Source: a virus (taxonomy: Duplodnaviria; Caudoviricetes). From it: 49,211 bases of DNA. The stretch is taken from IMG/VR virus record IMGVR_UViG_3300023171_000018, positions 1-49,211 of that record. One strand, 5' to 3'. The notes under the pieces were generated by a model that was given only the letters and a program-made list of their open reading frames with translations, searched no databases and was not told the DNA's origin. This document shows, piece after piece, positions 1 to 15,626 of the stretch (position 1 is its first letter; each line of letters begins with the position of its first letter). A program made the position numbers and the translations under genes.

Positions 1-147
1 CGAACTTGTCGTCTTCGTCATCGACTGAAGCCCTGTGAAAACGCGGCATCGAACGCGGCATCTAGACAGACAGTGCATAACTCCCATGTCCCCAATTCTT
101 CGTTGAAGATCGTTTCCTTATCCGACATGTCTTTATCGCAGCAGTTG
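1..147. repeat. Terminal overlap, copy 1 (circular assembly overlap)
   Basis: 1-147 matches 49063-49211 except for a 2-nt deletion (catc--gactg vs catcacgactg); it lies inside a gene. Confidence 0.9.
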
Positions 148-155
148 CACTTCAA
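18..155 (-). CDS. 5' part of a small Cys4 (zinc-finger-like) protein that spans the circular junction; frameshifted in this copy
   Basis: TTG start at 155 gives MKCNCCDKDMSDKE...ELCTVC; continues intact in 49001-49211. Confidence 0.65.
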   Translation of the reverse strand: MKCNCCDKDMSDKETIFNEELGTWELCTVCLDAAFDAAFSQGFSR

Positions 156-156
156 T

Positions 157-846: not shown

Positions 847-917
847 ATCAACCTCCCTCCTTAGGAGACACCTTAGGAAATAGAGAACAATTAATGATTA
901 ATCAATTTTAATCAATC

Positions 918-958
918 ATCCTTTGAACCTATTATAACAGATTTTAATTTGTTGTCAA
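918..958 (-). promoter_or_regulatory. sigma70-type promoter TTGACA-N16-TATAAT with extended -10 (TGn)
   Basis: -35 at 953-958, -10 at 931-936, followed by AGGTTCAAAGGAT; upstream of the oxygenase and replication genes. Confidence 0.85.
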
Positions 959-1131
959 CCCCCTTTGTACGACTCGATCCAATATCCTACGGCGTCATCC
1001 TCCAAAGCGAGGAAGGACATCGCCCCTCTCCGATCGATGTAAGGTACTCGTAGGACACTTCCGTCTTCATACTTGATACAGAGAGTCTTAGGTTCTCCGT
1101 GCTCTACTGCGGGTAGGACATCGATGTCCAC
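955..1131 (-). CDS. Hypothetical protein, 58 aa (not in ORF track)
   Basis: GTG start directly after the previous stop; MDIDVLPAVEHGEPKTLCIKYEDG...ESYKGG. Confidence 0.6.
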   Translation of the reverse strand: MDIDVLPAVEHGEPKTLCIKYEDGSVLRVPYIDRRGAMSFLALEDDAVGYWIESYKGG

Positions 1132-1194
1132 TTAGAGGTCCTTCGGCTTCGGACCAAGACCGTTGAGATATCGGATGTAATCTGCGTCGCTCAC
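1132..1194 (-). CDS. 20-aa peptide MSDADYIRYLNGLGPKPKDL
   Basis: AAGGAG RBS; GTGA overlap with the ATP-grasp stop codon. Confidence 0.55.
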   Translation of the reverse strand: MSDADYIRYLNGLGPKPKDL

Positions 1195-1976
1195 TGAATG
1201 TCTCCTTTGAAGAATTTGGCATAGTCCTCCACCGTCTGGCCTTCGAGACCGGGGGCGGTGTTGATTTCGAGGACATATGCACGATTCTGCTTTTCGTTAT
1301 AGATTACGTCGACTGCACCGAAGTCAAGACCGGACGCATCGAAGGATGAAATCGCCGACTCAATGACACACTGCGGTGCTTCAAAACCTTCTCGGGTATA
1401 GACAAAACCGTTGGAATGATTTCGAATTTCCCAATTAGGGTCGGTGCAATCGAGACGACGGGCTTTCCGCTGAACCGCGACAACAACCGTTGCTCCAGTG
1501 CCGTCAACGATCCGCTTCCCGAGATGGACACGATATTCATCCTTTTTCTTTTGATACTTCACATACAGTTGACACGGTACTACTTCTTCCGGAGTTCGCG
1601 CCAGTACGATACCAGCCCCAGAATGACCGCTAAGAATAGTACGGCATACGATAGGATAAGCGTCAGCCGGGATGTCTTCCGACGACGTCCAGAACTGGGG
1701 TATGACATTACTACACTCCTGTTGCATAACCTGAAAGAACGTAAGCTTGTCGCTGGCTTGACGAATACTGTTGGGAAGATTAAGAATCTGAGACGGATGT
1801 CCTACAGGCCAGTGAACCAACGACGGATTGCTGTTACCCCAGTTGATGACAATGTCACCTTCCCGGGGCTTATAACTGCTGCCCTCCAAACGGAGAATCT
1901 TACCTCCAAGCTTCTCGGCCAATGCCTTGGCGGACTTCGAACCCTGTTTGTAAGGGAGAATGCGATACCGTACCAT
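1191..1976 (-). CDS. ATP-grasp ligase (RimK/YheCD-like, phiEco32-type)
   Basis: INWG, GHSGAGI, EYRVH, LDFGAVDVI and VLEINTAPGL motifs. Confidence 0.9.
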   Translation of the reverse strand: MVRYRILPYKQGSKSAKALAEKLGGKILRLEGSSYKPREGDIVINWGNSNPSLVHWPVGHPSQILNLPNSIRQASDKLTFFQVMQQECSNVIPQFWTSSEDIPADAYPIVCRTILSGHSGAGIVLARTPEEVVPCQLYVKYQKKKDEYRVHLGKRIVDGTGATVVVAVQRKARRLDCTDPNWEIRNHSNGFVYTREGFEAPQCVIESAISSFDASGLDFGAVDVIYNEKQNRAYVLEINTAPGLEGQTVEDYAKFFKGDIQ

Positions 1977-1978
1977 GT

Positions 1979-3133
1979 TTATTCCTCTTCGTCTGGGTCG
2001 TAGTCTTCTTCGGGTTCGTAATCATCTTCGACCTCTTCCTCTTCAGGGGGAGTCTCAGCAAACGGATTAAGCCATGGCGTCGGCGTCGGTACTTGCGCTG
2101 CTGCCTGTGCCCAAGCTGTGTTCAGAGTCGGAGAGATATACTGAGCTTCGTCATAAATCATATGACTTGGCATAGGGGCACCGATGTTGGCATAAGCCTG
2201 CTGCAACGGGCTCATCTTCTTCTTATTACGACCGAAGGGATCAGTCGACCGAGTCACCGGCTTGTACCGACTCCAGTCACGACAGTAACAGAGGTCCTGT
2301 GCCAGCCGAATACCTTCGTACATCGACTGTCGAATGGCGTCGTCGTTCATCGAGACCGAGGCACGGACGGTATCATAGTGCTCACCAAGTACACCACGGA
2401 GGTAGTCGATGGGGTCATTACCGGAGAAATTCTCAGTGATACCACGGGGATCGGGATATTCGGCGGACAAATTGTAGATGCGTTCGAGGACACCTACCCA
2501 CTGTACGACTGTGCCGGGGTCAGTGACACCACGGAGGCTACGAATCTCCAGTGAACCGAACTTAATCAGCGCCTGAGTATTCATACCGCTATAATGAAGA
2601 CCCTCGGTCAGCTCAGTACGACCGTCGTTGACGATCCACTTCTTGATCTTCGAGACGATTGCCGGAGCATCCTTCGCACGGAGACAAAAGAGGTTGCCGA
2701 CACGGTGATCGCCACACCACTCAGTCAGGATCTCCTCAAGTGAGAAGTACAATGCGAGGAAGGACGTCAGCCGAGGAAGATGGAAGGTCTGGACGTTGAG
2801 GTGGACGTGAACCGAAGTCCGATTCGAGTCGTCGAGGACGGTACCGTAATCAGCGAGAGTCTTATACAAATCGAAGACGGCGTCCTTGACTTCCTTGAAT
2901 GCGATCGGAGATTTGAGGACGTATTCGGCATTGTCCTTACCCCTCAACGAACCGTCATGGGTATAGTTCCACAGCGGAGGGAGGAGATTGTTCTGCTTCG
3001 GAAACTTGTTCCCTTCACACTCAATCTCGATACCGATCTCACCCTTCGTCGGATGCTTGCCGAGAATGGTAAGGACGTCAAAGCCCTCTTGGTCATAGTT
3101 CAGATCGGGTACGAAGAACTTCTCGTTATGCAT
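1979..3133 (-). CDS. Putative amidoligase (COOH-NH2 ligase, glutamine-synthetase-like fold)
   Basis: GIEIECE, HDGSLRG..AEYV, SVHVHLN and GSLEIR motifs; ATG 3133 chosen on RBS; acidic C-terminal tail. Confidence 0.85.
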   Translation of the reverse strand: MHNEKFFVPDLNYDQEGFDVLTILGKHPTKGEIGIEIECEGNKFPKQNNLLPPLWNYTHDGSLRGKDNAEYVLKSPIAFKEVKDAVFDLYKTLADYGTVLDDSNRTSVHVHLNVQTFHLPRLTSFLALYFSLEEILTEWCGDHRVGNLFCLRAKDAPAIVSKIKKWIVNDGRTELTEGLHYSGMNTQALIKFGSLEIRSLRGVTDPGTVVQWVGVLERIYNLSAEYPDPRGITENFSGNDPIDYLRGVLGEHYDTVRASVSMNDDAIRQSMYEGIRLAQDLCYCRDWSRYKPVTRSTDPFGRNKKKMSPLQQAYANIGAPMPSHMIYDEAQYISPTLNTAWAQAAAQVPTPTPWLNPFAETPPEEEEVEDDYEPEEDYDPDEEE

Positions 3134-3152
3134 AAATCTATCCTTACTTCGA

Positions 3153-3932
3153 TTACTTGCCGCGAACCTTGATATCGCCGAAGACACCAAGCTCAGCAAC
3201 CGCTTCCTTGCAGTGATTAAAGTTGCGGCCAATAGTAATAAGACTGAGATCATGATTAGGAAGAGTGCCAATGACTTCAGCCTTGTATGCGACGAACATG
3301 ATGTCCAACGGTCCTCGCATGATAGCGAACTGCCGATGAAATGCAGCGCCTTCGTTAGCTACTCGGTCGTCTGCGAGAGCCTTGAGACATTCTTCAGGGG
3401 TCGGATAGTCGTTGACGATAGTCCGAGCGAGTTGGATACTGTCGAGGCTGCACGACTGACGCATCGGACGACCATCCTTCGGAAGGATCGAGACAGAGGA
3501 GACGTTGAGCATCTGCTGACCGAGCCCCTGAAGCGTATTCCGGGTCGGCTGACGCTCGACGTACATCACAGTCGATCCGACATTCACCATACCGAGGGGG
3601 AAGGGACGGAACTTGTTGAAGAGGGGGCTGTTCATCATCTTCCGGATGACACCGCAGTCGTCCTTCTGCTTCTCCAGCCACGCATCCATCTTGTCACCGA
3701 CCGACTCGCCCGGGCCTTCATCATGCCAATCATACGGCATACCGTGGATACGACGACGAGCACAGCCATCCTTGTGGAGAAGGTCGTCGAGGTACATACG
3801 GAAGATACCGTCACTCTTGTGGTCAGCGATACAGAGGACGTAATACGGCTTACCGTCATAGAGGATGACAGTGTTCTGGAGCCGCATCCGAGCCTCTTTG
3901 ATGGTCTCGTAGTAATTCGTAAAAGAAGGCAT
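3153..3932 (-). CDS. Hypothetical protein within the amide-ligase cluster
   Basis: 259-aa ORF with RBS, between the two ligases. Confidence 0.75.
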   Translation of the reverse strand: MPSFTNYYETIKEARMRLQNTVILYDGKPYYVLCIADHKSDGIFRMYLDDLLHKDGCARRRIHGMPYDWHDEGPGESVGDKMDAWLEKQKDDCGVIRKMMNSPLFNKFRPFPLGMVNVGSTVMYVERQPTRNTLQGLGQQMLNVSSVSILPKDGRPMRQSCSLDSIQLARTIVNDYPTPEECLKALADDRVANEGAAFHRQFAIMRGPLDIMFVAYKAEVIGTLPNHDLSLITIGRNFNHCKEAVAELGVFGDIKVRGK

Positions 3933-3942
3933 CTTTTATTCC

Positions 3943-4782
3943 TTAAAAAGAAATCATCTGGATCGGATTGAAGAAGTTGCTAGTGAGTTCGTCATGCAAC
4001 TTGCTCGTGTCAATCGACTGAATGAGGAGGTCGTTGAAGACAGCCGGTGCGCTCTCAGGGCGGAAGTTCGTCCGCATGTCATAGATTGCCTTCTGCATCC
4101 GGTTCCAGACCTGAAGCCGAGTAGCACCAGTCGAGAGCCAGAAGTTCGAGAGGACACGGTACTCGACACCATAGTCCTTGAACCGACATGCCCCGGCCTT
4201 GCCATAGAGGGTACGACGACGGGCGTCAGGGTCCTTGATGACCGACCACGCACCGAGATACCAATCCAGCTGTTTGACGAGGTCACGGGCGTTCTGGACG
4301 TACTCCATATCACTGACCTCGGCATCTTCCGTCCAACCGAAGTGGAGGTGACCTGAAGCAGTACGGAGACGCTCGTTACCTTCCGTGTTCGGCGGAGGAT
4401 TGATGGTCCCCGTCCATGCATTGAAGTCGGGGTTGCAGCCGAGAATCTTCGCGACGTCCGGTGCATCACCCCATGCCTTCTCGGAGAACTCGACAGCGGG
4501 GACAGCGGAGAGTTTGTAGCCACGAGGAAGCATTGCTCGAAGCTGGGCGAGGACCTGAGTGATGTTCCGATTGAAATCGCTGTAGTTCGTCACGGGATCG
4601 ATGTTGAACTCGGCTGCCATGCCATCGACTTGGACGGCACCGAAGTCGACCTTATAGGGACTTTCCTTCGTACCCGGGATCAACCCCTCGGCGGTGACAT
4701 ATTCACCATCGGGATTGAGGACGAAGAGTTCGGGATCGCAGCCGAACTTGAACCCGGGGAGTGCTTCAAGGACAGTAGTCAT
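3943..4782 (-). CDS. phiEco32-like COOH-NH2 ligase type 2
   Basis: GCDPELF, QVDGMAAEFN, GCNPDFNAW, RTASGHLHFG, RRTLYGKAG and GVEYRVLSNFW motifs. Confidence 0.9.
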   Translation of the reverse strand: MTTVLEALPGFKFGCDPELFVLNPDGEYVTAEGLIPGTKESPYKVDFGAVQVDGMAAEFNIDPVTNYSDFNRNITQVLAQLRAMLPRGYKLSAVPAVEFSEKAWGDAPDVAKILGCNPDFNAWTGTINPPPNTEGNERLRTASGHLHFGWTEDAEVSDMEYVQNARDLVKQLDWYLGAWSVIKDPDARRRTLYGKAGACRFKDYGVEYRVLSNFWLSTGATRLQVWNRMQKAIYDMRTNFRPESAPAVFNDLLIQSIDTSKLHDELTSNFFNPIQMISF

Positions 4783-4814
4783 GTTATTTCCTTCTTAGTC
4801 TTTAGGGAGTTGAA

Positions 4815-5999
4815 TTAGCAAACCTGCTGCTGGTTATGCCAAGGGAGCATCGGAAGAGGCTTCTCATCCTTCTTCTGCTCTTCAGCGAACTTCTGCATCT
4901 TAATCGGCGATGCATAGACACGGTTCGTATCGCGACTACTGCAGCACGATCCGATGACCTGTTCGTTGATCTCGAAGATAACGATACCCTTGTCCCGATA
5001 ACCTACGCTACGGGAACAGAACGAGCATCCGTAACGAGCCATCTGATTGAACGTACCTTCGTCGATGTAATCTCCGAATGGCTTAGCACCGGTCGTGTCT
5101 AGCTTCATCAGGACGGGAGTAACTGTAGAGGTCTTCGGTGGAGTCGTCGAGGTTGAGGTCGACGCCCCAGACACGTTCCCAGTAGTCTGCCGAGGAAAAT
5201 TTCCATAATTCCCACCACCATAGACTTTAACCGGGGCAGGCTCCTTTCCCTTCAGCTCCTTGACACGAGGCTTAGGACGACCTTCGAACCCCTTCTTCAG
5301 TTCGTCGAGAGAGTAGCGGTAATGCCAATCCTCGGTCGTCTGGAAGAACGAATAACCTTGTTCGTTGCAGAAGAGTTCGTACTTGTCCTTCTCCGGCGAA
5401 GCGGCACAGGCAGCACGGATCATCCAATGCTCCGAAGCCCACAGAAGGAGCTTGAAGTCCTTGTCGTAAGCGTACCAAAACGGACGCTCCTTGTTGCGGA
5501 GGAAGTTCAGCGTCCCCTCCTTCGCATCATGCCACACGAGAGCCCAAGCACCCTGTAGGAGCTTCACTGTGTCGTCGATGCCGATCTTCTCGATGCAGCC
5601 AAAGATTGCTTCGCTGTCAGTCCCGGTCTTCTCACCGAGGACCTTCTGAAGCTCGTCCCACGACTCCGTCGTCAGCGTCCCGTTATGAGCACCGGTGATG
5701 TGACCACGCTGATAGGGATGGGCGTTGACGTCGTTGACAGCACCCTTCGTGGCGGCGCGGTTGTGACCGATGAACGCCTTGCAGTTGTAGGCGTTGGCAG
5801 CGGCCTTGTACCGGAGGGTGTCGAAGAGGTTGATGGGATTACTGGCGATCTTTGCGATCTTGACTTCGGTGTTGTCGTCCTTGACACAGGCGATACCAGT
5901 CGAATCAGGACCACGGAAGTAGTCATTCATCAACAGTCGCTTCATCGTGTTCTCGTCGCGGAGCTTCAGGGCTCCTGCTAGACCTACGTGGCCGCACAT
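4815..5999 (-). CDS. Class II (Ntn) glutamine amidotransferase
   Basis: N-terminal MCG nucleophile; RGPDSTG, GHNRAAT, NAHPY, HNGTL and TDSE motifs. Confidence 0.92.
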   Translation of the reverse strand: MCGHVGLAGALKLRDENTMKRLLMNDYFRGPDSTGIACVKDDNTEVKIAKIASNPINLFDTLRYKAAANAYNCKAFIGHNRAATKGAVNDVNAHPYQRGHITGAHNGTLTTESWDELQKVLGEKTGTDSEAIFGCIEKIGIDDTVKLLQGAWALVWHDAKEGTLNFLRNKERPFWYAYDKDFKLLLWASEHWMIRAACAASPEKDKYELFCNEQGYSFFQTTEDWHYRYSLDELKKGFEGRPKPRVKELKGKEPAPVKVYGGGNYGNFPRQTTGNVSGASTSTSTTPPKTSTVTPVLMKLDTTGAKPFGDYIDEGTFNQMARYGCSFCSRSVGYRDKGIVIFEINEQVIGSCCSSRDTNRVYASPIKMQKFAEEQKKDEKPLPMLPWHNQQQVC

Positions 6000-6844
6000 T
6001 ACTTAGTCTCCTGCTTATTTTCGATGACAACTGCATCATCAATGACCATTGTCTTTGCGGCGATTTCAGCCCAATGTTCGTTACGGGCGTCGAGTACCGA
6101 GTCCTTGATACGACGGACACGGCCCTTGAGTGCGAGATCGGGGTTTTCGAGGAAGAACTCGTTCATCCGGTGCATCGTCCACTTCGCGAACTCACTGTAT
6201 CCACGGTACTCAGGATGACCCTGAACACCGAAGCAGCATGTATCACGATAGAAGTAGGCTTCGACGTCTGGACGGCACCCAGCGAGGCTCTGAGTCGGTG
6301 TCAGCCACCGGAAATCAGCCTTGCTGCTCGTAGCGATGACTTCCATGCCACCTTCAGGGTTTGCAATGCACGCCTGATGATGAACAGACGACACTTTCTC
6401 GATCAGCTTCCGACCCTTCAAATCGTACATCGAGTGGTCGCCGTTGTGGTTATTGATGTCCTGATACAGACGACCACCATTCATGACGTGAAGGAACTGA
6501 GCCCCACGGCAGACACCGAACATCGGAATGCCTTCGTCGATACACTGGGTGTAGACGTCAATATCCGCTGCGTCCCGTTCTTCGTCCCACTGTACCGAGG
6601 CATGGGGTTCTTGACCGTAGAGAGCGGGATTGACGTCCTGACCACCAGTGAAGATGACGACGTCAGCGTCCTCAGGGAGTTCGACACGAGTGCAGCGTGC
6701 AGGGACAAGCATCTCGGCGAAGTTACCGATCTCGTATTGGTCACCGACGATGCAGACTTCCAGCCACAACTCCGGTGTATCAGCACTCCGAGTGTCACGG
6801 ACGATCGTCATCGACTTCTTCATCTCCAGAACATTGTCAGTCAT
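5999..6844 (-). CDS. Class I glutamine amidotransferase / peptidase C26 (gamma-glutamyl hydrolase-like)
   Basis: FTGGQDVNPALYG, GVCRGAQ, SVHHQ and GVQGHPE; start uncertain (ATG 6844 or GTG 7090). Confidence 0.88.
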   Translation of the reverse strand: MTDNVLEMKKSMTIVRDTRSADTPELWLEVCIVGDQYEIGNFAEMLVPARCTRVELPEDADVVIFTGGQDVNPALYGQEPHASVQWDEERDAADIDVYTQCIDEGIPMFGVCRGAQFLHVMNGGRLYQDINNHNGDHSMYDLKGRKLIEKVSSVHHQACIANPEGGMEVIATSSKADFRWLTPTQSLAGCRPDVEAYFYRDTCCFGVQGHPEYRGYSEFAKWTMHRMNEFFLENPDLALKGRVRRIKDSVLDARNEHWAEIAAKTMVIDDAVVIENKQETK

Positions 6845-7241
6845 CTTTGAGCATCCATCCATTCCAAGGGTATTGGTCGAGCCCGGAGGCGTCTTCCCAG
6901 TCGATGTCTTTGACTGGTTCGAGGTAATCGTCGTCGGAGTCAGTGGCAACCCCGTCACCATCGAAACTGGCCCCTGCTTCGCTTCCCGCTGCATCCTTAC
7001 CGCTTCCGGTGACTCGGCGGACACAAGGACTGTTTCGCGGATCTTCGACGCATATTCCCGCCGACGCTTCTTTCGTTGTTTCCGAGACACTGAGGCCCCT
7101 TTCTCTTTCTTGCCGTTTGATAACAGCTTCCGTAAGTTCAGCGATAACCATCCGCGCATTTTCGTGCGCGCCCCAATAATTGAGGCAAAGGGCATCATAA
7201 AGGACGTCCTCTTCGGTTTCGACGTATCTACGCCTTGCCAT
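6837..7241 (-). CDS. Hypothetical acidic protein
   Basis: 134-aa ORF coupled by a TGATG overlap to the upstream gene. Confidence 0.55.
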   Translation of the reverse strand: MARRRYVETEEDVLYDALCLNYWGAHENARMVIAELTEAVIKRQERERGLSVSETTKEASAGICVEDPRNSPCVRRVTGSGKDAAGSEAGASFDGDGVATDSDDDYLEPVKDIDWEDASGLDQYPWNGWMLKDD

Positions 7242-8035
7242 CAGCCGTATTCTTCGTCGATGTAATCATCCTCTGGATTGTAGATTGCCGCGGGTGCAAT
7301 GGACACCGCCTTCCCGAATGGATCGATCGATGCCTTCTTCGGCTCACGAGCCAACCGTGCTTCCTTCGGCTCAGGGGCAGCACCCGGGAGACGACGACCA
7401 GCGAGAATGACAGGAGCACCAGCAGCCTTCAGCTGAGCCTCAGTCATGATCTTAGCAGGGCCAATGACTTCCCACTGCTTCAACTGGACTGCTTGGACGT
7501 TATCAGGCGACATATCACCGCTGTAGGGGTCAGGGAGGTCCGTCCATGCCTTCGGAGGCGTCAGCGTATCCTTGATCGCGCCCTTGCCGATGTTCCGGAA
7601 AAGACCGAAGAGGTAGTTCGGATGAGGACTTGTCTCTGCGAACGTACCCGGCTTCGTCACCGTCTTCGGTCCGGTATAGACACTGTTGTCGGTCGTCCGG
7701 ATGAACTCGAAGCCGTTCTCCTTCAGAATGGCAAGCCACTTCTTACCGTGACTGCCACTGATCTGTTCACTTGTGAGGACAGCGAGGAAGACATGGTTCG
7801 GCATATCCGATTCACTGAAGGTACCGATGCGGAGACGACTGTTGAAGATGTCACGGTAAGTGGGACCGACGAACGCTTCACCACCGCTTTTGATGATGGG
7901 GTTGCCACCGTCACCGCCTACGAGCTGGATGCTGGCCTTGGCATCGGGGTCGAACTTAAAGTTCTGGATGATGCACATCGCACAGCAGCCCCAGTAGCCA
8001 CCGGGGATCGAACTTCCGAACCTCAGGAACTCCAT
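7241..8035 (-). CDS. Hypothetical protein, possible GNAT-like fold
   Basis: GGYWGCC and EQ..KWLAILKENGF motifs shared with 8718-9179. Confidence 0.7.
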   Translation of the reverse strand: MEFLRFGSSIPGGYWGCCAMCIIQNFKFDPDAKASIQLVGGDGGNPIIKSGGEAFVGPTYRDIFNSRLRIGTFSESDMPNHVFLAVLTSEQISGSHGKKWLAILKENGFEFIRTTDNSVYTGPKTVTKPGTFAETSPHPNYLFGLFRNIGKGAIKDTLTPPKAWTDLPDPYSGDMSPDNVQAVQLKQWEVIGPAKIMTEAQLKAAGAPVILAGRRLPGAAPEPKEARLAREPKKASIDPFGKAVSIAPAAIYNPEDDYIDEEYG

Positions 8036-8229
8036 TACTTGTCTCCAAACTTGATGGTTGCAGGGGTCGAGGGTGGGACGTAGACACCCTTCACCGCTTC
8101 ATAGAACTCTACGTCATCGAAATCCACGTCACTGTAGTCGTCGGCAAGAGTCTCTAATAGCGCAGTAGACGTGTCACCAGTAGCGAGAACCTCGTCCCAC
8201 CGGATTGCAATGTAAATCTTCTTTGCCAT
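8035..8229 (-). CDS. Hypothetical protein
   Basis: 64 aa, GGAGG RBS, coupled to the next gene. Confidence 0.7.
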   Translation of the reverse strand: MAKKIYIAIRWDEVLATGDTSTALLETLADDYSDVDFDDVEFYEAVKGVYVPPSTPATIKFGDK

Positions 8230-8230
8230 A

Positions 8231-8593
8231 TCAAACCTCCTTCGTCGTAGTCATAACCTTAACGAACTTATCGGTGTCAATGAAAGACGATACGATCTTG
8301 GTGACCGGGACACCTCCTCTCATCAACTTGAACCCGCGCTTTTCAAGTTCGTCACGAGCAGCTCGTGCAACCTTCCACATATCACGGTATTCGGTGGCCA
8401 GCTCTTCGTCGGTCTTCTCCGCCGGAGACACCAGAGCCAGCTCTCCGGGGCTGAATTTCATTGACTCCAGATCCTGAAGATAGATCACTATCTCATTCCC
8501 GTGAGTCCGGATATCTTCGATACGAAGACCCGGCGAGTTCGCCCAACCGCTGTACTTCGGACGGACGATATCACCGACCTTAAACTGTGTCAT
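8231..8593 (-). CDS. Hypothetical protein (FKVGD N-terminus, SH3/KOW-like)
   Basis: 120 aa, AAGGAG RBS. Confidence 0.75.
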   Translation of the reverse strand: MTQFKVGDIVRPKYSGWANSPGLRIEDIRTHGNEIVIYLQDLESMKFSPGELALVSPAEKTDEELATEYRDMWKVARAARDELEKRGFKLMRGGVPVTKIVSSFIDTDKFVKVMTTTKEV

Positions 8594-8603
8594 GATTTTC
8601 TCC

Positions 8604-8644
8604 TTGACAATTATCAGAAAAGTGTTATAATAGGTTCAAAGGAT
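8604..8644 (+). promoter_or_regulatory. sigma70-type promoter, antisense to the surrounding genes
   Basis: TTGACA 8604-8609, N16, TATAAT 8626-8631; 22 nt identical to the 918-939 element. Confidence 0.8.
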
Positions 8645-8717
8645 AGTTCTTAGAAGATAATTGTTAATCATTAATACAAGAAATAACTATCTCCTAGGAA
8701 ATCTCCTAAGGAGGCGA

Positions 8718-9179
8718 CTACTCGTCTTCGTCGCAATCCTCGTCGTCGATAGCCTCAGCATCTTCCTTGCCGGGATAGTTTTCATCGACGTTGAGATGGA
8801 AGACGACACAAGTGTTGCCACTGTTCGAATTGAGATGACGATTGACCTCCTTGAACCCACGGCTGAGGAGTTCAGGTATCCACCGGCTTTGGTCGATCCA
8901 GCTATACTTTGAATTGATCGCGATGACGACTTCAAGGATGTTGCAAGGGCGACGACGCTTCATGTAGTCGATGTAACGGTCGAGGCGAGCCGTCCCCTTC
9001 TCCTCAGGGGCAGCTTCGTGGAAGAACCGAGTATCCGACGTCACCGACGAACCGTTTTGATCTCGGTCATCCTTCGCAATCTGCGGAATAGCGTAGTCTT
9101 TGCTGTCAGGGTTCGTACCCATACTGAAGATAGTCTTGATGCCGCAGCAGAGTCCGCCGTGGAATACGAGTTGCATCAC
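8718..9179 (-). CDS. Hypothetical protein, possible GNAT-like fold
   Basis: HGGLCCG and DQSRWIPELLSRGF..NSNSGN; acidic tail. Confidence 0.7.
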   Translation of the reverse strand: MMQLVFHGGLCCGIKTIFSMGTNPDSKDYAIPQIAKDDRDQNGSSVTSDTRFFHEAAPEEKGTARLDRYIDYMKRRRPCNILEVVIAINSKYSWIDQSRWIPELLSRGFKEVNRHLNSNSGNTCVVFHLNVDENYPGKEDAEAIDDEDCDEDE

Positions 9180-9331
9180 TCGACTCCTTCAAGGGCACGG
9201 ATGCACTGAGCGAGGTCCTCGATCTGATCACGCTTGGTTTCAAGCTGGCCGAGGAGGTTAGCGACCTCAACCTCCCGAAGTTTTTTCGAGTCTCGCATCT
9301 GTTTGAGATGCTGTTCACGATAGACACCCAT
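9176..9331 (-). CDS. Hypothetical coiled-coil protein, 51 aa (not in ORF track)
   Basis: MGVYREQHLKQMRDSKK...RALEGVE; GGAG RBS; overlaps both neighbours. Confidence 0.65.
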   Translation of the reverse strand: MGVYREQHLKQMRDSKKLREVEVANLLGQLETKRDQIEDLAQCIRALEGVE

Positions 9332-9711
9332 CAATAGTCTCCCGTAGCTAGCTCCGAGGCCGTTCCCCGGGCTTTCTTCGTATATTCGAGCCAGTCACCC
9401 GACTTAACCTCAGGACGACTGTTCATCGTGTCGTTATAGGTGTAGACGAAAAAGGGGCCGTTGCCGAAGTCTACCTCTTCCCGGAGATAGAGGGACGTCT
9501 CAGGACGATTGGAGTCGTACCCTTCGTACCTGTCGAGCTGACCGAGCTTCCTGTCATCGACCTCGATGATCTCGACAGACACTCCCGGCGACACTGAGCC
9601 GTCGAGGACGAGGCCGGGATACGAACCGAGGTCATAGATACGACCGGGGATGACAACGACCGGGAACGAACCGGGACGAAGGGTGCCATAGACGGCGACC
9701 TTGTGCTTCAC
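9331..9711 (-). CDS. Gamma-glutamylcyclotransferase (AIG2-like)
   Basis: VAVYGTLRPG, DLGSYPGL, LDRYEG, Y.R and SGDW motifs. Confidence 0.9.
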   Translation of the reverse strand: MKHKVAVYGTLRPGSFPVVVIPGRIYDLGSYPGLVLDGSVSPGVSVEIIEVDDRKLGQLDRYEGYDSNRPETSLYLREEVDFGNGPFFVYTYNDTMNSRPEVKSGDWLEYTKKARGTASELATGDY

Positions 9712-10166
9712 TTCTCGCCTCCCTTGTCATCACGGTACTTCTGCCCCTGATCCTTGGGCAACTGATCGTCGAGGTAGCCGTTGATAACGGCACGAATCTT
9801 CGTCATCTCAGGGGTCTTCAGAACCTGTTCACCGGCTTCACTGCCAGCGATGAGGTAGAATGTGTCCTTCGACGGCACGAGGAACGATGCACCCCAGAGT
9901 ATGAAGAAAAGCGGAGAGAAGTACCCGAGACGACGTAGGCTCAATCCGAGTCTATACACCGACGTATCCTCTTTCTCGACCTTGAGATACTTCTGTTCCG
10001 TACCGCTCCACCGCTCATCGATCTTAGCCGAGTCCTCTATCTTCGATATCCCACAAAAGAAGATGAAAGCGAATCCGACGAACAGTAGGAAGCTGAGAAT
10101 GCACAGCCACGTCGACACTTTCGGCAGGACATCAGCCCAATACAGGAGCCAAGAGAGCCGGTTCAC
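9708..10166 (-). CDS. Membrane protein (two TM segments)
   Basis: Two hydrophobic stretches; GTG 10166 overlaps the upstream stop. Confidence 0.7.
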   Translation of the reverse strand: MNRLSWLLYWADVLPKVSTWLCILSFLLFVGFAFIFFCGISKIEDSAKIDERWSGTEQKYLKVEKEDTSVYRLGLSLRRLGYFSPLFFILWGASFLVPSKDTFYLIAGSEAGEQVLKTPEMTKIRAVINGYLDDQLPKDQGQKYRDDKGGEK

Positions 10167-10333
10167 TGGTTCGCTCCAACGATCTGAGGCGACCAACCAC
10201 CTTCAGCCGATGTCCGGATCATGAGCTGAGGCTCGATCAAGGAATGGTGGCGTATGCGACCGAGACGGATGAGTCGGATGCGTTCACGGCGGGCCTGATC
10301 CTTTTCGGCGCGCTTCCAGAGATATTCGTTCAT
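10163..10333 (-). CDS. Hypothetical basic protein, 56 aa
   Basis: AAGGA RBS before ATG 10333 (MNEYLWKRAEKDQARRER...). Confidence 0.6.
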   Translation of the reverse strand: MNEYLWKRAEKDQARRERIRLIRLGRIRHHSLIEPQLMIRTSAEGGWSPQIVGANQ

Positions 10334-10343
10334 GCTGATTTCC

Positions 10344-10568
10344 TTAGAAAGAGAGTTCGAGGGTGTCACCCTCATAAATGGGAGTCCGGGCCGAATTCTC
10401 AGAGAGAACCTGTTCGAGGGACTTCGCCAGTTTCTGATCCTGTACGATCCCACTCGAATTGATGTAGGTCGTACCGTCACCGTTCTGGAGATAGTAGCCG
10501 CGATCGCCGCAGCCGACGACAGCTATGAGCTTACGGGGAGGACTTGCCTCCGTGATTTTGATCTTCAT
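10344..10568 (-). CDS. Hypothetical protein, 74 aa
   Basis: TGATG coupling with the glycosylase gene (MKIKITEASPPRK...). Confidence 0.6.
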   Translation of the reverse strand: MKIKITEASPPRKLIAVVGCGDRGYYLQNGDGTTYINSSGIVQDQKLAKSLEQVLSENSARTPIYEGDTLELSF

Positions 10569-11080
10569 CACAAATACTTTCTGATTTCGGAGTACCACGA
10601 CGGCTTGCCGCGATATGTCCACAAAGGTTTCCGTGAGTCGAGATTGACCCACTTATTCATAAGACAATACTGGTAGTTCGTGAAGACGTCACCACGTTGC
10701 TGCCCCGACGAATCGAAGGAGAAGACAGGCTTCGTTTCTGTTCCGGGGAAGCAGTCACCAAAGACGTGGAGGTGATTGAAGGCGAGTTCGATGACGTCCC
10801 GTGATTTGTGGTAGCGATCGAAACGGAATTGGTATTCATCCGTCAACGCCCTGCCGTGATCGACCAACCAAAGGAAGTTCGCGAGGTCCTTACGAGCCCA
10901 GACAGAGCAGGGATGGAAGACATGAGTCGAGCCATACAAACCCTTGGCGACATCCGGATATACGGTCCGGAGTGCCGTCGAAAGGAGTTGGGCTGTCTCC
11001 AAAGCCATCTTAATCACTCGCTTGTCGTCCTGAACCTGAGCACAGGCGACGGGATCATTGCTTGTGAGAAAGATGTTCAT
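10568..11080 (-). CDS. Pyrimidine dimer DNA glycosylase / endonuclease V family protein
   Basis: MNIF...DKRVIKMALETAQLLSTA, TH..HPCSVWAR and EY..RF..YHKS motifs. Confidence 0.8.
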   Translation of the reverse strand: MNIFLTSNDPVACAQVQDDKRVIKMALETAQLLSTALRTVYPDVAKGLYGSTHVFHPCSVWARKDLANFLWLVDHGRALTDEYQFRFDRYHKSRDVIELAFNHLHVFGDCFPGTETKPVFSFDSSGQQRGDVFTNYQYCLMNKWVNLDSRKPLWTYRGKPSWYSEIRKYL

Positions 11081-11223
11081 TAGAATGCTCCCGGGAAACG
11101 ACCCCTGAGTTCTTCAGAGATGCTGTCTAGCTCAGAGACATCCTGCGGTGTTCTCTGATCCTCAGGGATACCTTCAATAGTCCTGAGACGGCTATAAAGC
11201 CACTTGGCGTAGTCGTCCGTCAT
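11080..11223 (-). CDS. Hypothetical protein, 47 aa (not in ORF track)
   Basis: MTDDYAKWLYSRLRTIEG...FPGAF; GGAGG RBS; ATGA and TAATG overlaps. Confidence 0.7.
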   Translation of the reverse strand: MTDDYAKWLYSRLRTIEGIPEDQRTPQDVSELDSISEELRGRFPGAF

Positions 11224-11495
11224 GCGTCCTCCAATGGCGCTCCCACTTCTACCTTCTGGTCACCTTCGACGGTGACGACCTTCTCGAAGTTAGCGGCCAT
11301 GTAGCCATTATATACCATACCACCGGCTGTCTTACCGGTGTCAGGTATGCCAGTGACATAGACACAAGCCGTGGGTTCGTCGTTCGTTTCTGTCCCGTTA
11401 GGATTGACGAAAACTTCCTTCACCCACCCTTGGTGTCCTATGAAGAGGGAACCACGGACCTTCTTGACGTGGTCACCGACTTTGAAGTCAATCAC
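11220..11495 (-). CDS. Hypothetical protein (FKVGD N-terminus)
   Basis: 91-aa ORF with RBS. Confidence 0.7.
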   Translation of the reverse strand: MIDFKVGDHVKKVRGSLFIGHQGWVKEVFVNPNGTETNDEPTACVYVTGIPDTGKTAGGMVYNGYMAANFEKVVTVEGDQKVEVGAPLEDA

Positions 11496-11504
11496 GGGGA
11501 GTTC

Positions 11505-11633
11505 CTAGACTGGTATCGCCTGCGGCCCACATGAGACGCAGGAGAGTACGAGGACGAAGAAGATAAGGAAGAGCAGCGGGCTCTCCCACGGCGGAGGCGG
11601 GGAATGATCCCCTACGAGCCATTCGTTGGTCAC
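11505..11633 (-). CDS. Small membrane or lipoprotein-like peptide, 42 aa
   Basis: GTGA overlap; hydrophobic LLFLIFFVLVLSCVSC stretch. Confidence 0.5.
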   Translation of the reverse strand: MTNEWLVGDHSPPPPWESPLLFLIFFVLVLSCVSCGPQAIPV

Positions 11634-11770
11634 TTCCGCGAGATGCCGACGAGCTGACAGAACTGACGTTCGAAGCGGTTGCGCTCGTTGTAGTCCTGCC
11701 TCCGAAACTCGGAACCCTGCGGGACGGTGACGGTCTGACGGTTGCTGCCCGAGCCGATGGTGATACGCAT
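11630..11770 (-). CDS. Hypothetical protein, 46 aa (not in ORF track)
   Basis: GGAG RBS; MRITIGSGSNRQTVTVPQGSEFRRQDYNERNRFERQFCQLVGISRK. Confidence 0.65.
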   Translation of the reverse strand: MRITIGSGSNRQTVTVPQGSEFRRQDYNERNRFERQFCQLVGISRK

Positions 11771-11785
11771 CTAGATTCTCCAAAA

Positions 11786-11839
11786 GGGAGCCGATATCAA
11801 TGGCGATATCAAAGAGGACAATCACGAGGACTGTCCTCT
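11786..11839 (-). promoter_or_regulatory. Tandem intergenic hairpins (possible processing or pause site)
   Basis: AGAGGACAGUC/GAUUGUCCUCU stem followed by GAUAUC/GAUAUC stem, just upstream of an RBS. Confidence 0.45.
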
Positions 11840-11848
11840 CAGTTACCG

Positions 11849-12112
11849 TCAGTGAGTCATCGAGCCAGGCTTCGTGGCCCAATTCGCCTGCGACCCCTGA
11901 TGGCTGTCAGGCTGCTTGTGCCCCGGCCCCTGATCGCCGTCACGACGGGTGTGGAGACGACCGAGCGACCGACGAAGCGACCGACCACCGGGGTACGTCT
12001 TGCCGTCACGAGTACGGGCGGGCTCGGTGCCTTTACCAGATCCGACCGAATAACCAAGCTGACGTGCCTTCTCGGTGGTGATCTTCTGACCATTCAAGAA
12101 ATGGATGTTCAT
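11849..12112 (-). CDS. Hypothetical basic early protein, 87 aa
   Basis: GAGGAG RBS before ATG 12112 (MNIHFLNGQK...). Confidence 0.7.
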   Translation of the reverse strand: MNIHFLNGQKITTEKARQLGYSVGSGKGTEPARTRDGKTYPGGRSLRRSLGRLHTRRDGDQGPGHKQPDSHQGSQANWATKPGSMTH

Positions 12113-12125
12113 GGTACATACTCCT

Positions 12126-12209
12126 CTAGCGAGATTGCTAGGAAGGACAGCGAAGCCCACTCATCATAGCCGCGCTAGAATGGTGCCTCACTGTCCATCG
12201 TAACAATCT
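12126..12209 (-). promoter_or_regulatory. Internal-loop hairpin, copy A (RNase III-like processing signal)
   Basis: 9-bp and 12-bp stems around a CGAU/UUCC internal loop; same loop as 13310-13404. Confidence 0.7.
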
Positions 12210-12262
12210 AGTGGGAACTTACGGTCCCCAGTCGCCGGACGCTCACCCTCCGGTGGATAGAG

Positions 12263-12352
12263 CTAGAGTCTGTCTAAGATACTGGTGACGATATACGCCA
12301 CTATCGCAGGAACAATAACGTACCCTAGAATCCAGAGCAGGGCTTCTGTCAT
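12263..12352 (-). CDS. 29-aa single-TM peptide MTEALLWILGYVIVPAIVAYIVTSILDRL
   Basis: TAATG overlap with the upstream peptide; almost entirely hydrophobic. Confidence 0.6.
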   Translation of the reverse strand: MTEALLWILGYVIVPAIVAYIVTSILDRL

Positions 12353-12414
12353 TACGCGGTTGCCGCGAGTGCCGCTTCGAGGCTGGGATACCACTTGCCA
12401 TTGTACCAAGTCAT
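12352..12414 (-). CDS. 20-aa peptide MTWYNGKWYPSLEAALAATA
   Basis: AAGGAG RBS; ATGA overlap. Confidence 0.6.
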   Translation of the reverse strand: MTWYNGKWYPSLEAALAATA

Positions 12415-12557
12415 GCTGCTATCTCCTTCGTTCGCTGTTCATAGTACCACCCTGCCCGCCATTCACGGATAGAGACGGGAGAGTGATAGGGGTTGGTGTT
12501 GAGGAGACGGCCTTCTCGGAACGCCTCCCTGCCGATGCCGTATGGAGTCAGCGACAT
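12411..12557 (-). CDS. Rmf/CrpP-like small protein, 48 aa
   Basis: G..A...G...NPY......EW..GW pattern typical of ribosome modulation factor; AGGAG RBS. Confidence 0.65.
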   Translation of the reverse strand: MSLTPYGIGREAFREGRLLNTNPYHSPVSIREWRAGWYYEQRTKEIAA

Positions 12558-12721
12558 CACTTAACTCCTAAAGCATCCCGGATTTGCTTATTGACATAGA
12601 CAGTACCAGTGCCTGCATCATAAGCGGTGACATAAGCCCGGAGAGCAGCAGCCATCTTTGCATTGTCCTGTTGCAAGAGATAGATACTGAGATCCCCGGG
12701 CTTTTGCTGTGGCTTGTTCAT
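12557..12721 (-). CDS. Hypothetical protein, 54 aa (not in ORF track)
   Basis: ATGA overlap with 12718-13269; MNKPQQKPGDLSIYLLQQDN...DALGVK. Confidence 0.65.
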   Translation of the reverse strand: MNKPQQKPGDLSIYLLQQDNAKMAAALRAYVTAYDAGTGTVYVNKQIRDALGVK

Positions 12722-13269
12722 GCAGCCTTTTCTTCGCCGGGCTCCTTGTCGTCATTGGCGACGACCGCCGGACGCTCGACCTTCAGCCCCGACAGCGACC
12801 GAGCGATAGCCTGAATGTACGGAATGTCCGCTTCCTCGGCCTTGCCGTCGTCGATCGACTTCTCGGCACGCTTCACGAGACCTTCGATCATCTTGAGGAG
12901 GGCTTCGCCGGTCAGCGGTGCCTTCTCCTTATTCTCCTCCGCGAGCTTGTAGAAAGGGGTCGCCTTACCGGCTTCGAGGTCCCACGGGACGAACATCTTG
13001 CTGGCGGGCTTGTGCATCGCTGCGACGAACTTCGGATCGTTCTTGACGACGATAGGCGTGAACGTCTTGAACCAGAGGATGAGCATCTCACGACGCATGC
13101 TGGCTGGCATCGCCATCACGAGACCCTGAGCGGTGGAACAGTCGCCGTGTTCCTTGGCGTGCTCTGCGATCATCATCGCCGTGTCGTGGATATAGACGTT
13201 CAACTTGTCGGCATTGCTGGTCAGAGTCTTGAAACGATCCTGCATACGGGCATTGAAGGACTTCGCCAT
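12718..13269 (-). CDS. Phage early protein of unknown function
   Basis: 183 aa; the HGD..A..L...P...R...L..WF pattern resembles early proteins of other podoviruses. Confidence 0.75.
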   Translation of the reverse strand: MAKSFNARMQDRFKTLTSNADKLNVYIHDTAMMIAEHAKEHGDCSTAQGLVMAMPASMRREMLILWFKTFTPIVVKNDPKFVAAMHKPASKMFVPWDLEAGKATPFYKLAEENKEKAPLTGEALLKMIEGLVKRAEKSIDDGKAEEADIPYIQAIARSLSGLKVERPAVVANDDKEPGEEKAA

Positions 13270-13309
13270 GATAGTTACTCTCTCTTAATGCCCCATCATT
13301 GGAGACACT

Positions 13310-13404
13310 CTAGCAGTGCTAGGAAGAATAGTGACTGGATATTTTTGCTGATCCCCGGCCAGACTATGCACGTCCCGGTTGTCACTATTCATCGTAACAC
13401 TCTA
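13310..13404 (-). promoter_or_regulatory. Internal-loop hairpin, copy B (RNase III-like processing signal)
   Basis: AGUGUUA/UAGCACU and GAAUAGUGAC/GUCACUAUUC stems around CGAU/UUCC. Confidence 0.7.
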
Positions 13405-13407
13405 ATA

Positions 13408-13687
13408 CCTAGAGATAGCCCCTCGCATCGCTGGATTATCCAAGCGATTTCAGTAGGGAACGGAGACCGTTGAGACGTAGGAGATATGCGGCTTGGGTGG
13501 TTGCGTCACTAGCCTTCGTGGCTTCGTGGGCAATTTCACGGAGAGTTTGACGATACGCAGGACAAGCGAACGGTTGCCGCTTCCCTGTTCCGTTGAGATT
13601 GATATTTGCCTTCGGCTGATACGAAGCGCGGGCTGTGGAGATTGTCATGTCTTTTACTCGCGTGACTAGCGAGGGGCTATCTCTAGG
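13408..13687. repeat. Perfect 19-bp inverted repeat (13408-13426 / 13669-13687) enclosing one gene
   Basis: cctagagatagcccctcgc vs gcgaggggctatctctagg. Confidence 0.9.
13436..13648 (-). CDS. First early gene, hypothetical 70 aa
   Basis: First ORF after the non-coding leader. Confidence 0.65.
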   Translation of the reverse strand: MTISTARASYQPKANINLNGTGKRQPFACPAYRQTLREIAHEATKASDATTQAAYLLRLNGLRSLLKSLG

Positions 13688-13728
13688 GCGGACAATAGAG
13701 GGGAAATCCTCAAGCCGCCTTAGAGAGT

Positions 13729-14178
13729 GTTAGGGCACAACCGAGACCGCGACTAAACGGAATGATTGCTCAACCCTAACTGGGGACTGACAAGGCACTT
13801 ATCCACCGGCTGGTGTTTGGGTGCGTCCCCTTAATAGCCGTTCTGTACGACACCCTAGGCCATGCGTTTGGCACTACGGGGTCGTTAGTCCCGTAGCGGT
13901 GAAGTCCTATCGATCCCGGGCACTCTTGTGCCTCCGTGGACGTTATCCGCGTCGTTCTTAGCTATCGCAAGCTTAGACGATACCGATAGGCCGGTCCGCT
14001 GTCGATGACACTACGCCCCTTGATAGATTTAGCATTGAAACCCCTATTGGAGCGTTCATTGCGAACCGTAGGCGATGCCGTGTCACCGGCTGATATAGTT
14101 ACCACTCTTGAAGACTTATACTCCGGGATCTGGTCGCCCTAAGGTTCGCGTCCCATGCTGTCCGTCTGTCCGTGGTAG
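13729..14178 (-). ncRNA. Putative large structured leader / ncRNA (~450 nt)
   Basis: No RBS-supported ORF; many nested helices including a four-way junction; directly downstream of GGAAC-N16-CGTT. Confidence 0.55.
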
Positions 14179-14184
14179 TGGTAG

Positions 14185-14209
14185 AACGGTTCGGTTGCAC
14201 TATGGTTCC
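14185..14209 (-). promoter_or_regulatory. ECF (EcfG/sigmaT-type) promoter GGAAC-N16-CGTT
   Basis: GGAAC at 14205-14209, CGTT at 14185-14188, A7 tract upstream at 14223-14229. Confidence 0.65.
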
Positions 14210-14297
14210 CGGTCGTTCCACCTTTTTTTGCACCGTGGCTAGAAGCCCCTTGGAGCGCCCTTGGTGTAGGGCAGTTCGTCAGTCGGTACAACAGTAA

Positions 14298-14323
14298 GAC
14301 GCTTCAACCCCATTGTTGGTTCC
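14298..14323 (-). promoter_or_regulatory. Second ECF-type promoter GGAAC-N17-CGTC
   Basis: GGAAC at 14319-14323, CGTC at 14298-14301. Confidence 0.5.
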
Positions 14324-14496
14324 GTGTAATCTTCTGTCGTTGTTGCACCGTCCTTTGTACTATTGTTACAGGATCGCCCCTAGTCTGTGTCATTATGTTG
14401 CGTATGAGACGACATATCATTGTATTGTTGCGTCATTGGTGCATCCATTGATGTATTATTACTCATGTCCATTGATCTTTGTTACATTGTTGCGTC
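14311..14496. repeat. Array of short CATTG / TGTTGCGT motifs
   Basis: CATTG at 14311, 14418, 14434, 14446, 14470, 14485; TGTTGCGT at 14396, 14426, 14488. Confidence 0.6.
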
Positions 14497-14534
14497 CACG
14501 GAGGAGGGGGCCTGTGTTCTCTGTTTGTTCCGGT

Positions 14535-14585
14535 GGGGTGCCGGGGGTGGGGGAGCATGGAACGGGCGCGGGAGGGGTAGAGGGG
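14535..14585 (+). other. G-run cluster (G-quadruplex-capable), possibly near the packaging or terminus site
   Basis: Seven G3-G5 runs in 51 nt. Confidence 0.6.
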
Positions 14586-15031
14586 TCAGCCCACCTCATT
14601 TTCTCTATAAAAAATCCAAGGACCTTCTAAGCGATTTAAGCCCCTTACAGAAGAATTCCTAATTGAGAGCTACCCTCGTACCCCATTGACCCCTTTTTCT
14701 TCTCTATGGTGCCTATACGGGCCTTATTGGAGGCTTCCATTGACAACTCCACGGGCTCGCATGGCTCGCCCCATTGGAAATCCCCCTGGGATGAGACATA
14801 AAAATAAGGAATCCGGCCCCTCCTTTGGAGATTACTTAGAAACTCCTCAGAGAATCTCCTAGGATATATTCTCTTTTGTTTAATTCTCTTAGATATGTCT
14901 ACTCAGGATTATCCATAGTATATATCCTATATATATTACTTAGTATAACGTAGGTAGATTTCTGAAATTTCAAGGGGTCTTATAAAATAAATATTAATTT
15001 ACTTGTTTTTGTCTCTCTTGTACGATTTCTC

Positions 15032-15064
15032 TTGACTTTTGTCACTAAATCGAGTATAATAGGT
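15032..15064 (+). promoter_or_regulatory. sigma70-type late promoter TTGACT-N17-TATAATAGGT
   Basis: -35 at 15032-15037, -10 at 15055-15060; upstream of terS. Confidence 0.8.
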
Positions 15065-15086
15065 GTATAAGGGAAGGAGATGTCTC

Positions 15087-15626
15087 ATTTATCATAAACC
15101 AACAGATCCTAACGCCAATCCCAAGAAGCTTCCCGGTAAGAAATTGAAGGGAAAGATGGCGTTGTTTGTCGAAGAATATCTCGTCGACATGTCTCCCGTC
15201 AATGCCTTCAATCGAGCAGGATATAAGTCTCCTTCCCATAAAATCTCCTATATGCGAGCTACGGAAATGATGAGACATCCAGCTGTGAAGGCTGCGATTG
15301 ATGAACGAATGGTTGAACGAAGGGAACGTATGGAACTCTCAGTCGAATACGTCGTAAACAAACTCGTCAGCATCGTCGAAGAAAGTGACGAGAACCCTAC
15401 AGCCGCACTTCGTGGGCTGGAACTCCTCGGTCGCCACCTCGGAATGTACCGAGACAAACAAGAAATCAGCGGTCCTGACGGTTCTGCTATTCAGGTTCAG
15501 GAACAAAAGGTCCAAGCAGATGTCGCAGATTTCCGAAGCAGAATTGCTGGCCTCGCTACCCGAACAGGAACGGGAGACATTCTTAGCTTCCCTAAGCCCG
15601 GAAGCTCTGCAGAGTCTGAAGACTGA
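15087..15626 (+). CDS. terS: Terminase small subunit
   Basis: FVEEYLVD..A..RAGY and ALRGLELLGRHLGMY motifs; start is ATT 15087 (AAGGAG RBS) or ATG 15156. Confidence 0.85.
   Translation: MYHKPTDPNANPKKLPGKKLKGKMALFVEEYLVDMSPVNAFNRAGYKSPSHKISYMRATEMMRHPAVKAAIDERMVERRERMELSVEYVVNKLVSIVEESDENPTAALRGLELLGRHLGMYRDKQEISGPDGSAIQVQEQKVQADVADFRSRIAGLATRTGTGDILSFPKPGSSAESED

Follow-up and report, generated by a model that had tools for sequence, protein, structure and literature searches.

Few large phage RNAs have an assigned function. The best-known antiterminator that consists of RNA only, put of phage HK022, is just about 70 nt long and folds into two stem-loops, and a copy lies at each early promoter and the activity is independent of tethering (PMC9378689). 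Cleavage of early RNA is known from phage T7, the early transcript of which is processed by RNase III (PMC4858673). The catalogue of viral structured RNAs by Fremin et al. holds 10,006 models of 29-151 nt, each from at least three IMG/VR regions; four contig identifiers from our set were absent from the part of its supplement that was searched, and a fragment of the leader described here could sit in the remainder (PMC10690425). The ncRNA candidates published for LUZ24 and LUZ19 are not at the left end of the genome in the portion of the source consulted (PMC10914365). The literature search, the coverage of which left most subscription journals outside, found no paper on this leader RNA or on the leader of Caulobacter phage Cd1.

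The window, the whole stretch of DNA analysed here, is the entire record of an uncultured virus (IMGVR_UViG_3300023171_000018; 49,211 bases). Packaging and virion genes lie on its plus strand from about 15,200, early and replication genes lie on the minus strand from 13,648, and the leader stands at the head of the early arm, about 400 nt from a conserved putative genome end. The host is likely to be a sphingomonad (Sphingomonadaceae). Sphingomonad names (Sphingomonas, Sphingomicrobium, Hephaestia or Allosphingosinicella) are carried by all nine organism-named relatives of the endolysin among the 120 relatives listed, and of four terminase relatives in cellular genomes two were in Novosphingobium and Allosphingosinicella and two closer ones in unrelated metagenome bins. 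Elsewhere on the minus strand (1191-7198) there is a gene cluster with ATP-grasp, amidoligase, COOH-NH2 ligase and two glutamine amidotransferase genes. An inverted duplicate module of a perfect sigma-70 promoter and an AT-rich hairpin occurs at 8594-8717 (plus) and 847-965 (minus); its sigma-70 copy at 8604-8631 is directed against the early operon and is without counterpart among the four consensus sites of the related phage G035. The features of the leader and of the first early genes are as follows, in the order of transcription; L083 is the corresponding leader of G035, and X2 and X3 are runs that gave partial contigs of relatives.

14298-14323, minus strand: second, weaker copy of the EcfG-type promoter motif (consensus match)
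14185-14209, minus strand: EcfG-type promoter motif, GGAAC-N17-GTT (consensus match)
14001-14178, minus strand: variable 5' domain of the leader (z -0.69; aligns poorly to L083)
13903-13992, minus strand: four-way junction domain, core part 1 (covariation in L083; identity in X2)
13859-13897, minus strand: two small hairpins of variable sequence (L083 counterparts by eye)
13782-13850, minus strand: hairpin and linker, both conserved, followed by a nested stem that has a conserved 5x5 internal loop (compensatory pairs)
13729-13780, minus strand: long hairpin at the 3' end, its 3-nt bulge conserved (covariation in L083)
13669-13687, minus strand: 5' arm of the 19-bp stem around g70, a predicted target of RNase III (perfect inverted repeat)
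13436-13648, minus strand: first early ORF, g70, 70 aa, inside the loop of the bracketing stem (ORF and 17 aligned homologues)
13408-13426, minus strand: 3' arm of the 19-bp bracketing stem (perfect inverted repeat)
13310-13401, minus strand: long hairpin that has an internal loop and finishes with a CTAGC..GCTAG element; the second site where processing is predicted (inverted repeat and fold)
12718-13269, minus strand: 183-aa early gene g183 (phrog_1448, unknown function), anchor gene of the leader slot (PHROGs)

The sequence-only reading had described 13729-14178 as an ORF-free stretch that gives a densely folded RNA of about 450 nt. The absence of ORFs was borne out, as no ORF of at least 50 aa lies between 13669 and 14139 and all six frames hold 4-14 stops each. 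The structured RNA was found as well, but its extent was not, the conserved core covering only about 280 nt (13720-14000, minus strand). When the minus strand of the 450 nt was compared with shuffles, as that reading had proposed, the fold was better than expected (z -2.71; 0 of 100 shuffles as good); the plus strand of the same stretch gave z -2.63 and was better than 100 of 100 shuffles, and energy by itself therefore cannot tell the strand. The lowest z of 197 segments of 200 nt from positions 1-39,400 was that of 13601-13800 (-5.76), followed along the leader by -2.80 in 13801-14000 and only -0.69 in 14001-14200. The 5' 180 nt of the leader are variable and fold no better than chance. This domain is swapped for 242 other letters in an X2 contig and has few changes in X3, and the loop of its tetraloop hairpin at 14040-14053 differs among the window, X3 and L083. 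The long 5' stem proposed earlier (14134-14149/14061-14075) falls within the region that is replaced in the X2 contig and has no clear counterpart in L083.

Relatives were gathered using the terminase and g183 as search queries, the latter having 113 relatives, and the sole full homologue of the leader was L083, in which the counterpart of 13724-13981 matched at 65% identity. Phage G035 is colinear with the window phage, and most of their proteins are 50-80% identical. Helices were predicted from the window alone and then mapped through a sequence-only alignment to L083, where 38 of the 84 pairs were changed; pairing was kept in 22 of these 38, compared with 12.3 expected. Among pairs changed on both sides 18 of 22 were kept, and controls with slid partners kept 1-3. 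The failures were grouped in two places, the outermost stem and an alternative hairpin, and the alternative long hairpin of the single-sequence fold had 8 of its 15 pairs broken. The reverse test from L083 to the window was marginal (P 0.049), and with one full homologue and otherwise partial contigs the statistics rest on two sequences and one alignment made by the authors. X3 differs from the window by 15 listed substitutions in 13742-14178, four further differences near contig ends being left out of the list: six fall where the base is paired and its partner is covered, and pairing survives in each of them (two lie in a small 5' hairpin that was defined after the variants were seen), three have an uncovered partner and six are unpaired. 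Taken together, the comparison indicates that the core is an RNA fold kept by compensatory base changes, and we regard the structure as secure.

Two further traits point to an element that acts as RNA on the minus strand, namely one-sided changes that pass through G-U pairs on that strand (four in L083, two in X3) and loops that swap among AAUA, GCAA and UUCG. Unpaired positions of the core are 76% identical between the window and L083 (81 of 107) compared with 40% of the four-fold codon sites in nine orthologous genes (524 of 1309), suggesting that the loop sequence is selected beyond what stability or pairing would explain.

All the helices named in the sequence-only reading are present in the window sequence, and the relatives separate them. 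The four-way junction (13982-13990/13906-13914) was supported, with six of the nine pairs of the closing stem changed on both sides in L083 and all of them kept; 13903-13996 is identical in an X2 contig that has differing flanks, so the junction domain behaves as a module. Compensatory change was likewise seen in the hairpin given as 13729-13735/13774-13780 (here 13729-13736/13773-13780), and along the whole 3' terminal hairpin 5 of 18 pairs were changed on both sides in L083, 5 of 5 being kept, with pairing probabilities of 0.98-0.99. The hairpin 13873-13880/13890-13897 has an L083 counterpart, seen by eye only. The GGGGAC/GUCCCC pairing (13825-13830/13782-13787) is a helix with compensatory change but not the suspected pseudoknot, since it is nested. 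Compensatory pairs at 13822/13797 and 13814/13805 occur in L083 and X3 alike, and the first of them speaks against the proposed helix 13819-13826/13847-13855, which is broken in X3 by the change at 13822 that compensates with 13797 in the competing helix. The long-range GACUAA/UUAGUC pairing (13885-13890/13751-13756) was absent from the helices of at least five pairs open to both the window and L083 and is not supported. Within the L083 counterpart of 13782-13850 a UUCG hairpin is inserted, and the junction topology is kept.

The leader matches no catalogued family among those compared. That no tRNA or tmRNA had been recognised in it agrees with ARAGORN, which found 0 genes in the window, and that no RNase P, 6S or riboswitch had been recognised agrees with Rfam 15, which was run against models that took in GOLLD, ROOL, OLE, RNase P, 6S, riboswitches, ribozymes and CRISPR repeats and gave 0 matches at the gathering threshold. 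The only matches in the window below threshold (E 1.4 and 5.3) were both outside the leader RNA, and neither the L083 leader nor G035 had a match in Rfam. RNase P-like, group I-like and CsrB-like readings were rejected, as Rfam gave no match and the motifs were not conserved in L083. With no match to Rfam, CRISPR repeats included, and no internal repeats, the leader mimics no catalogued host RNA. A model of the leader (R1) matched 0 of 101 genomes of the Novosphingobium family, and one candidate host copy, in G041 (27.6 bits), was rejected because it lay inside an ORF and had many broken pairs. In searches for further homologues, blastn of the leader gave no match in cultured phages, pattern scans of IMG/VR recovered only the L083 contig (one match; 1 of 19 in the second scan), which is the one IMG/VR member of the family found besides the window, a genome scan with the g183 alignment found nothing, and the six matches of a metagenome scan were the L083 contig, the window's own contig and four chance matches. 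The proposal of an undescribed large structured phage RNA is supported by covariation, by loop conservation and by the lack of an Rfam match.

The ECF-type promoter that had been noticed just upstream is present as a motif, GGAAC-N17-GTT at 14185-14209, which fits the EcfG consensus of Sphingomonas, GGAAC-N17-20-GTT (PMC6599016). The motif alone is weak, with 18 sites at one mismatch compared with 11.4 expected. X3 retains both boxes and a single one of the tandem GGAAC units, with changes at five spacer positions and none in the 95 nt that follow; L083 has an exact consensus (L083:2481-2505) together with an overlapping TTGACA-type site. Among the 28 leaders of the clade, the limits of which were set by hand, five have the EcfG-type motif at the start (the window, L083, L087:2724-2748, L091:2689-2714 and L092:2718-2743), three of these starts having been set using the motif itself, and several others have TTGACA-type sites instead. 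We infer that the leader is transcribed from the motif at 14209-14185 in a host of the Sphingomonadaceae. If true, a lytic phage that relies on a general-stress sigma factor would be worth attention.

Downstream of the core, g70 is enclosed by a 19-bp stem (13669-13687/13408-13426) that has compensatory changes in L083. Bracketing stems of at least 15 bp were found in 15 of 32 regions of the clade, compared with 1 of 40 shuffles of the window's region, and in the other 17 of the 32 the stem is short or missing. Where it is present, the long stem, of freely covarying sequence, encloses the first early gene or genes. Processing stems of rRNA likewise bracket a whole gene. Long double-stranded stems between early cistrons, as in T7, are found here as the 19-bp stem and a hairpin with 21-nt arms, and since the T7 early transcript is processed by RNase III, the same processing is predicted for the bracketing stem. 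The g70 product itself had no credible match in PHROG or PDB. The CTAGC..GCTAG element precedes the homologous gene in many loci of the clade and also in Caulobacter phage Cd1 and the Brevundimonas phages BC and Babayka. Next to another relative's g183 homologue, just downstream of it, L082:4125-4174 (plus strand) holds a hammerhead-like element with core motifs and a predicted three-way fold, below the Rfam threshold (E 0.54).

The position of the leader is shared more widely than its sequence. All 28 leaders are ORF-poor with z below 0, and z is below -2 in 19 of 28 compared with 15 of 47 coding controls (P 9e-5), some of which include downstream hairpins. Models of the two domains of the window core matched the window and L083 only, among 60 sources; most clade leaders differ in sequence from the core, sharing the slot while the sequence turns over fast between lineages. 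Five leader pairs kept pairing in 48 of 55 two-sided changes compared with 13 of 24 in six coding controls, and the two-sided share of changed pairs was 55 of 101 compared with 24 of 223; two of the six coding controls also had P below 0.02, so that the P values of leader pairs are inflated and should not be taken literally, and the reverse test from L013 to L007 fails (P 0.53). Three further leader families, each with two-sided covariation and unrelated to the window by sequence, are L087/L091, L056/L057 and L007/L013. For eight leaders sharing short motifs a joint alignment gave no common fold. Twelve relatives open the early arm with an arginine-rich ORF of 73-120 aa upstream of the structured leader (e.g. 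L056:2058-2348, L020:8294-8605, L055:7760-8044), a family absent from the window and L083.

Cultured phages have a leader in the same place. Cd1, BC, AA and Babayka carry a conserved and covarying ORF-poor leader of about 580 nt (L142:912-1510, L143:850-1419, L147:295-790), unannotated in their records, with the last early promoter on one side and a phrog_1448 gene on the other. Two-sided changes occur in 27 of its 159 pairs, about 150 nt are nearly invariant in Cd1, BC and Babayka, and Rfam gave no match in the Cd1 and BC records. This leader had no detectable homology to the window core or the clade leaders, and a link from L092 to the Cd1 leader (nhmmer, E 2e-4) was weak, and model R3 did not confirm it. 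Podophage genomes commonly have a long left end that is free of ORFs and carries several promoters, and Yersinia phage phi80-18 has a 570-nt ORF-free gap (L146:1290-1845; z -4.5) before its phrog_1448 gene.

The evidence fixes the anatomy of the leader and not its function. Our main reading, to which we give a probability of roughly 40%, is that 13720-14000 is a multi-domain fold which is transcribed first by the host RNA polymerase, freed by RNase III and used during takeover as a decoy that binds a host protein. The observations at hand are covariation, loop conservation, no coding capacity, a constant place where the early arm starts, and a bracketing stem found clade-wide. Under the decoy reading the host polymerase would transcribe the leader before anything else from the EcfG-type motif, RNase III would cut the 13669-13687/13408-13426 stem and so yield a free RNA of about 500 nt, with g70 on a message of its own, and the conserved loops of the free RNA would be presented to a host protein, either one of defence or one that binds RNA, which is the least secure step. 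Such a decoy needs no translation and would thus be the fastest product of infection. That each lineage keeps a fold of its own in one slot would be the trace of an arms race in which the host targets vary. The decoy is favoured because conserved loops suggest a binding partner, the bracketing stem suggests release, and turnover together with module swapping suggests that the partner is variable. Against it, the leader is always promoter-proximal and never found elsewhere, which is the signature of a cis element.

The main rival takes up that cis signature. As the sequence-only reading had also proposed, the RNA may act like put, loading onto the host RNA polymerase while it is made and allowing read-through of the 13-kb early operon, and although we consider this unlikely, several observations agree with it: the leader always lies directly behind an early promoter motif with one copy per genome, no RNA polymerase or sigma factor was found among the 49 proteins scanned with PHROGs or the 31 scanned with Pfam (sets that do not include all of the smallest ORFs), and the next perfect sigma-70 site on the early strand is at 958, about 13 kb beyond the leader. 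The twelve relatives with an arginine-rich ORF upstream, which the window lacks, recall lambda N versus HK022 put, but these ORFs have no known or N-like family match in Pfam, PHROGs or PDB. As put works untethered, release by RNase III would be compatible with antitermination (PMC9378689). However, the core, at about 280 nt, is four times as long as put and occurs once, and an RNA that recognises a conserved surface of the polymerase should itself be conserved, yet the clade leaders do not match the window models. Terminators with a U-tract are also few on the early strand, where positions 1-15400 hold five terminator-like sites; U-tracts are absent from most intergenic hairpins of the early operon, which look more like RNase III sites than terminators.

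Less probable again, and in our view quite unlikely, is a housekeeping leader that keeps Rho and nucleases off the untranslated stretch and governs both processing and translation of the first early genes without a specific partner. The fast turnover of sequence between lineages and the commonness of long ORF-free left ends with several promoters in podophages fit this, but it leaves unexplained why conservation in loops and bulges far exceeds that of neutral sites. Nor does it account for the junction topology that is kept in L083 while a hairpin is inserted elsewhere, for an RNA core that lies clear of the g70 ribosome site, about 70 nt downstream and without overlap, or for the nearly invariant stretch of the Cd1 group. 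Very unlikely is action as DNA (hairpins in the first-injected DNA, an origin or a packaging signal) or as antisense RNA against phage or host messages, which would suit the nearness to the putative genome end, the equally well folding plus strand and one 16-nt, 88% complement at 12244-12259, but is opposed by the RNA traits of G-U changes on the minus strand and tetraloop swaps, by the finding of no complement of at least 11 nt common to the window and G035 and by four X3 changes in the stretch that would pair with 12244-12259.

More broadly, alphaproteobacterial podophages could begin infection by deploying an RNA made for attack: the place directly after their first promoter, which in some is of the general-stress EcfG type, would hold lineage-specific folds of 300-600 nt that are freed by a gene-bracketing RNase III stem and hit a host machine, a defence protein or the RNA polymerase, before any phage protein is made. 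We regard this generalisation as possible but doubtful. If true, these would form a new functional class among the large RNAs of phages, one that could be tested in Caulobacter phage Cd1, as in the cultured Caulobacter and Brevundimonas phages the same gene family is preceded by a conserved leader of a different kind. A covarying RNA of this size with conserved loops, in a slot common to 28 leaders and cultured Caulobacter phages, would suggest an overlooked RNA layer of early host takeover, and the 'empty' left end of podophage genomes becomes a testable object in a model host. Should the fold merely protect an untranslated leader, it would still be a new RNA family, of modest interest.

Compared with HK022 put, the leader is similarly a structured RNA directly behind an early promoter motif in a phage reliant on the host polymerase, but instead of two stem-loops in two copies it has a four-way junction and five further stems, with one copy in the window and one in G035 (model R2). 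Lambda relies on the N protein and nut, and in the window phage no gene for an arginine-rich protein of the N family was found. In T7 the host polymerase makes a long early RNA with double-stranded stems between genes, and the same is predicted for the window phage, with release of the leader; here, in contrast, no phage RNA polymerase was found, the leader has a covarying multi-domain fold and the stem brackets a whole gene. The T7 leader has no known structured function. RNA anti-CRISPRs and pseudo-ToxI, the phage RNA decoys, are short repeat mimics; the proposed mode is the same, a phage RNA binding a host defence protein, but the leader has no repeats and no CRISPR-repeat match. GOLLD, ROOL and OLE are likewise long, multi-helix, covarying and of unknown function, although, going by the parts of the sources used, the leader is smaller, is without an Rfam match, has no tRNA in its genome and occupies a fixed early-leader position (10.1101/2024.12.08.627333, PMC5737381). 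A further likeness is to the leader of Cd1, BC, AA and Babayka, which belong to Autographiviridae and whose leader is not detectably homologous to the window core, but is also ORF-poor, covarying, placed before a phrog_1448 gene and ended by the same short hairpin element. On these comparisons we rate the leader as a new RNA family in a known setting.
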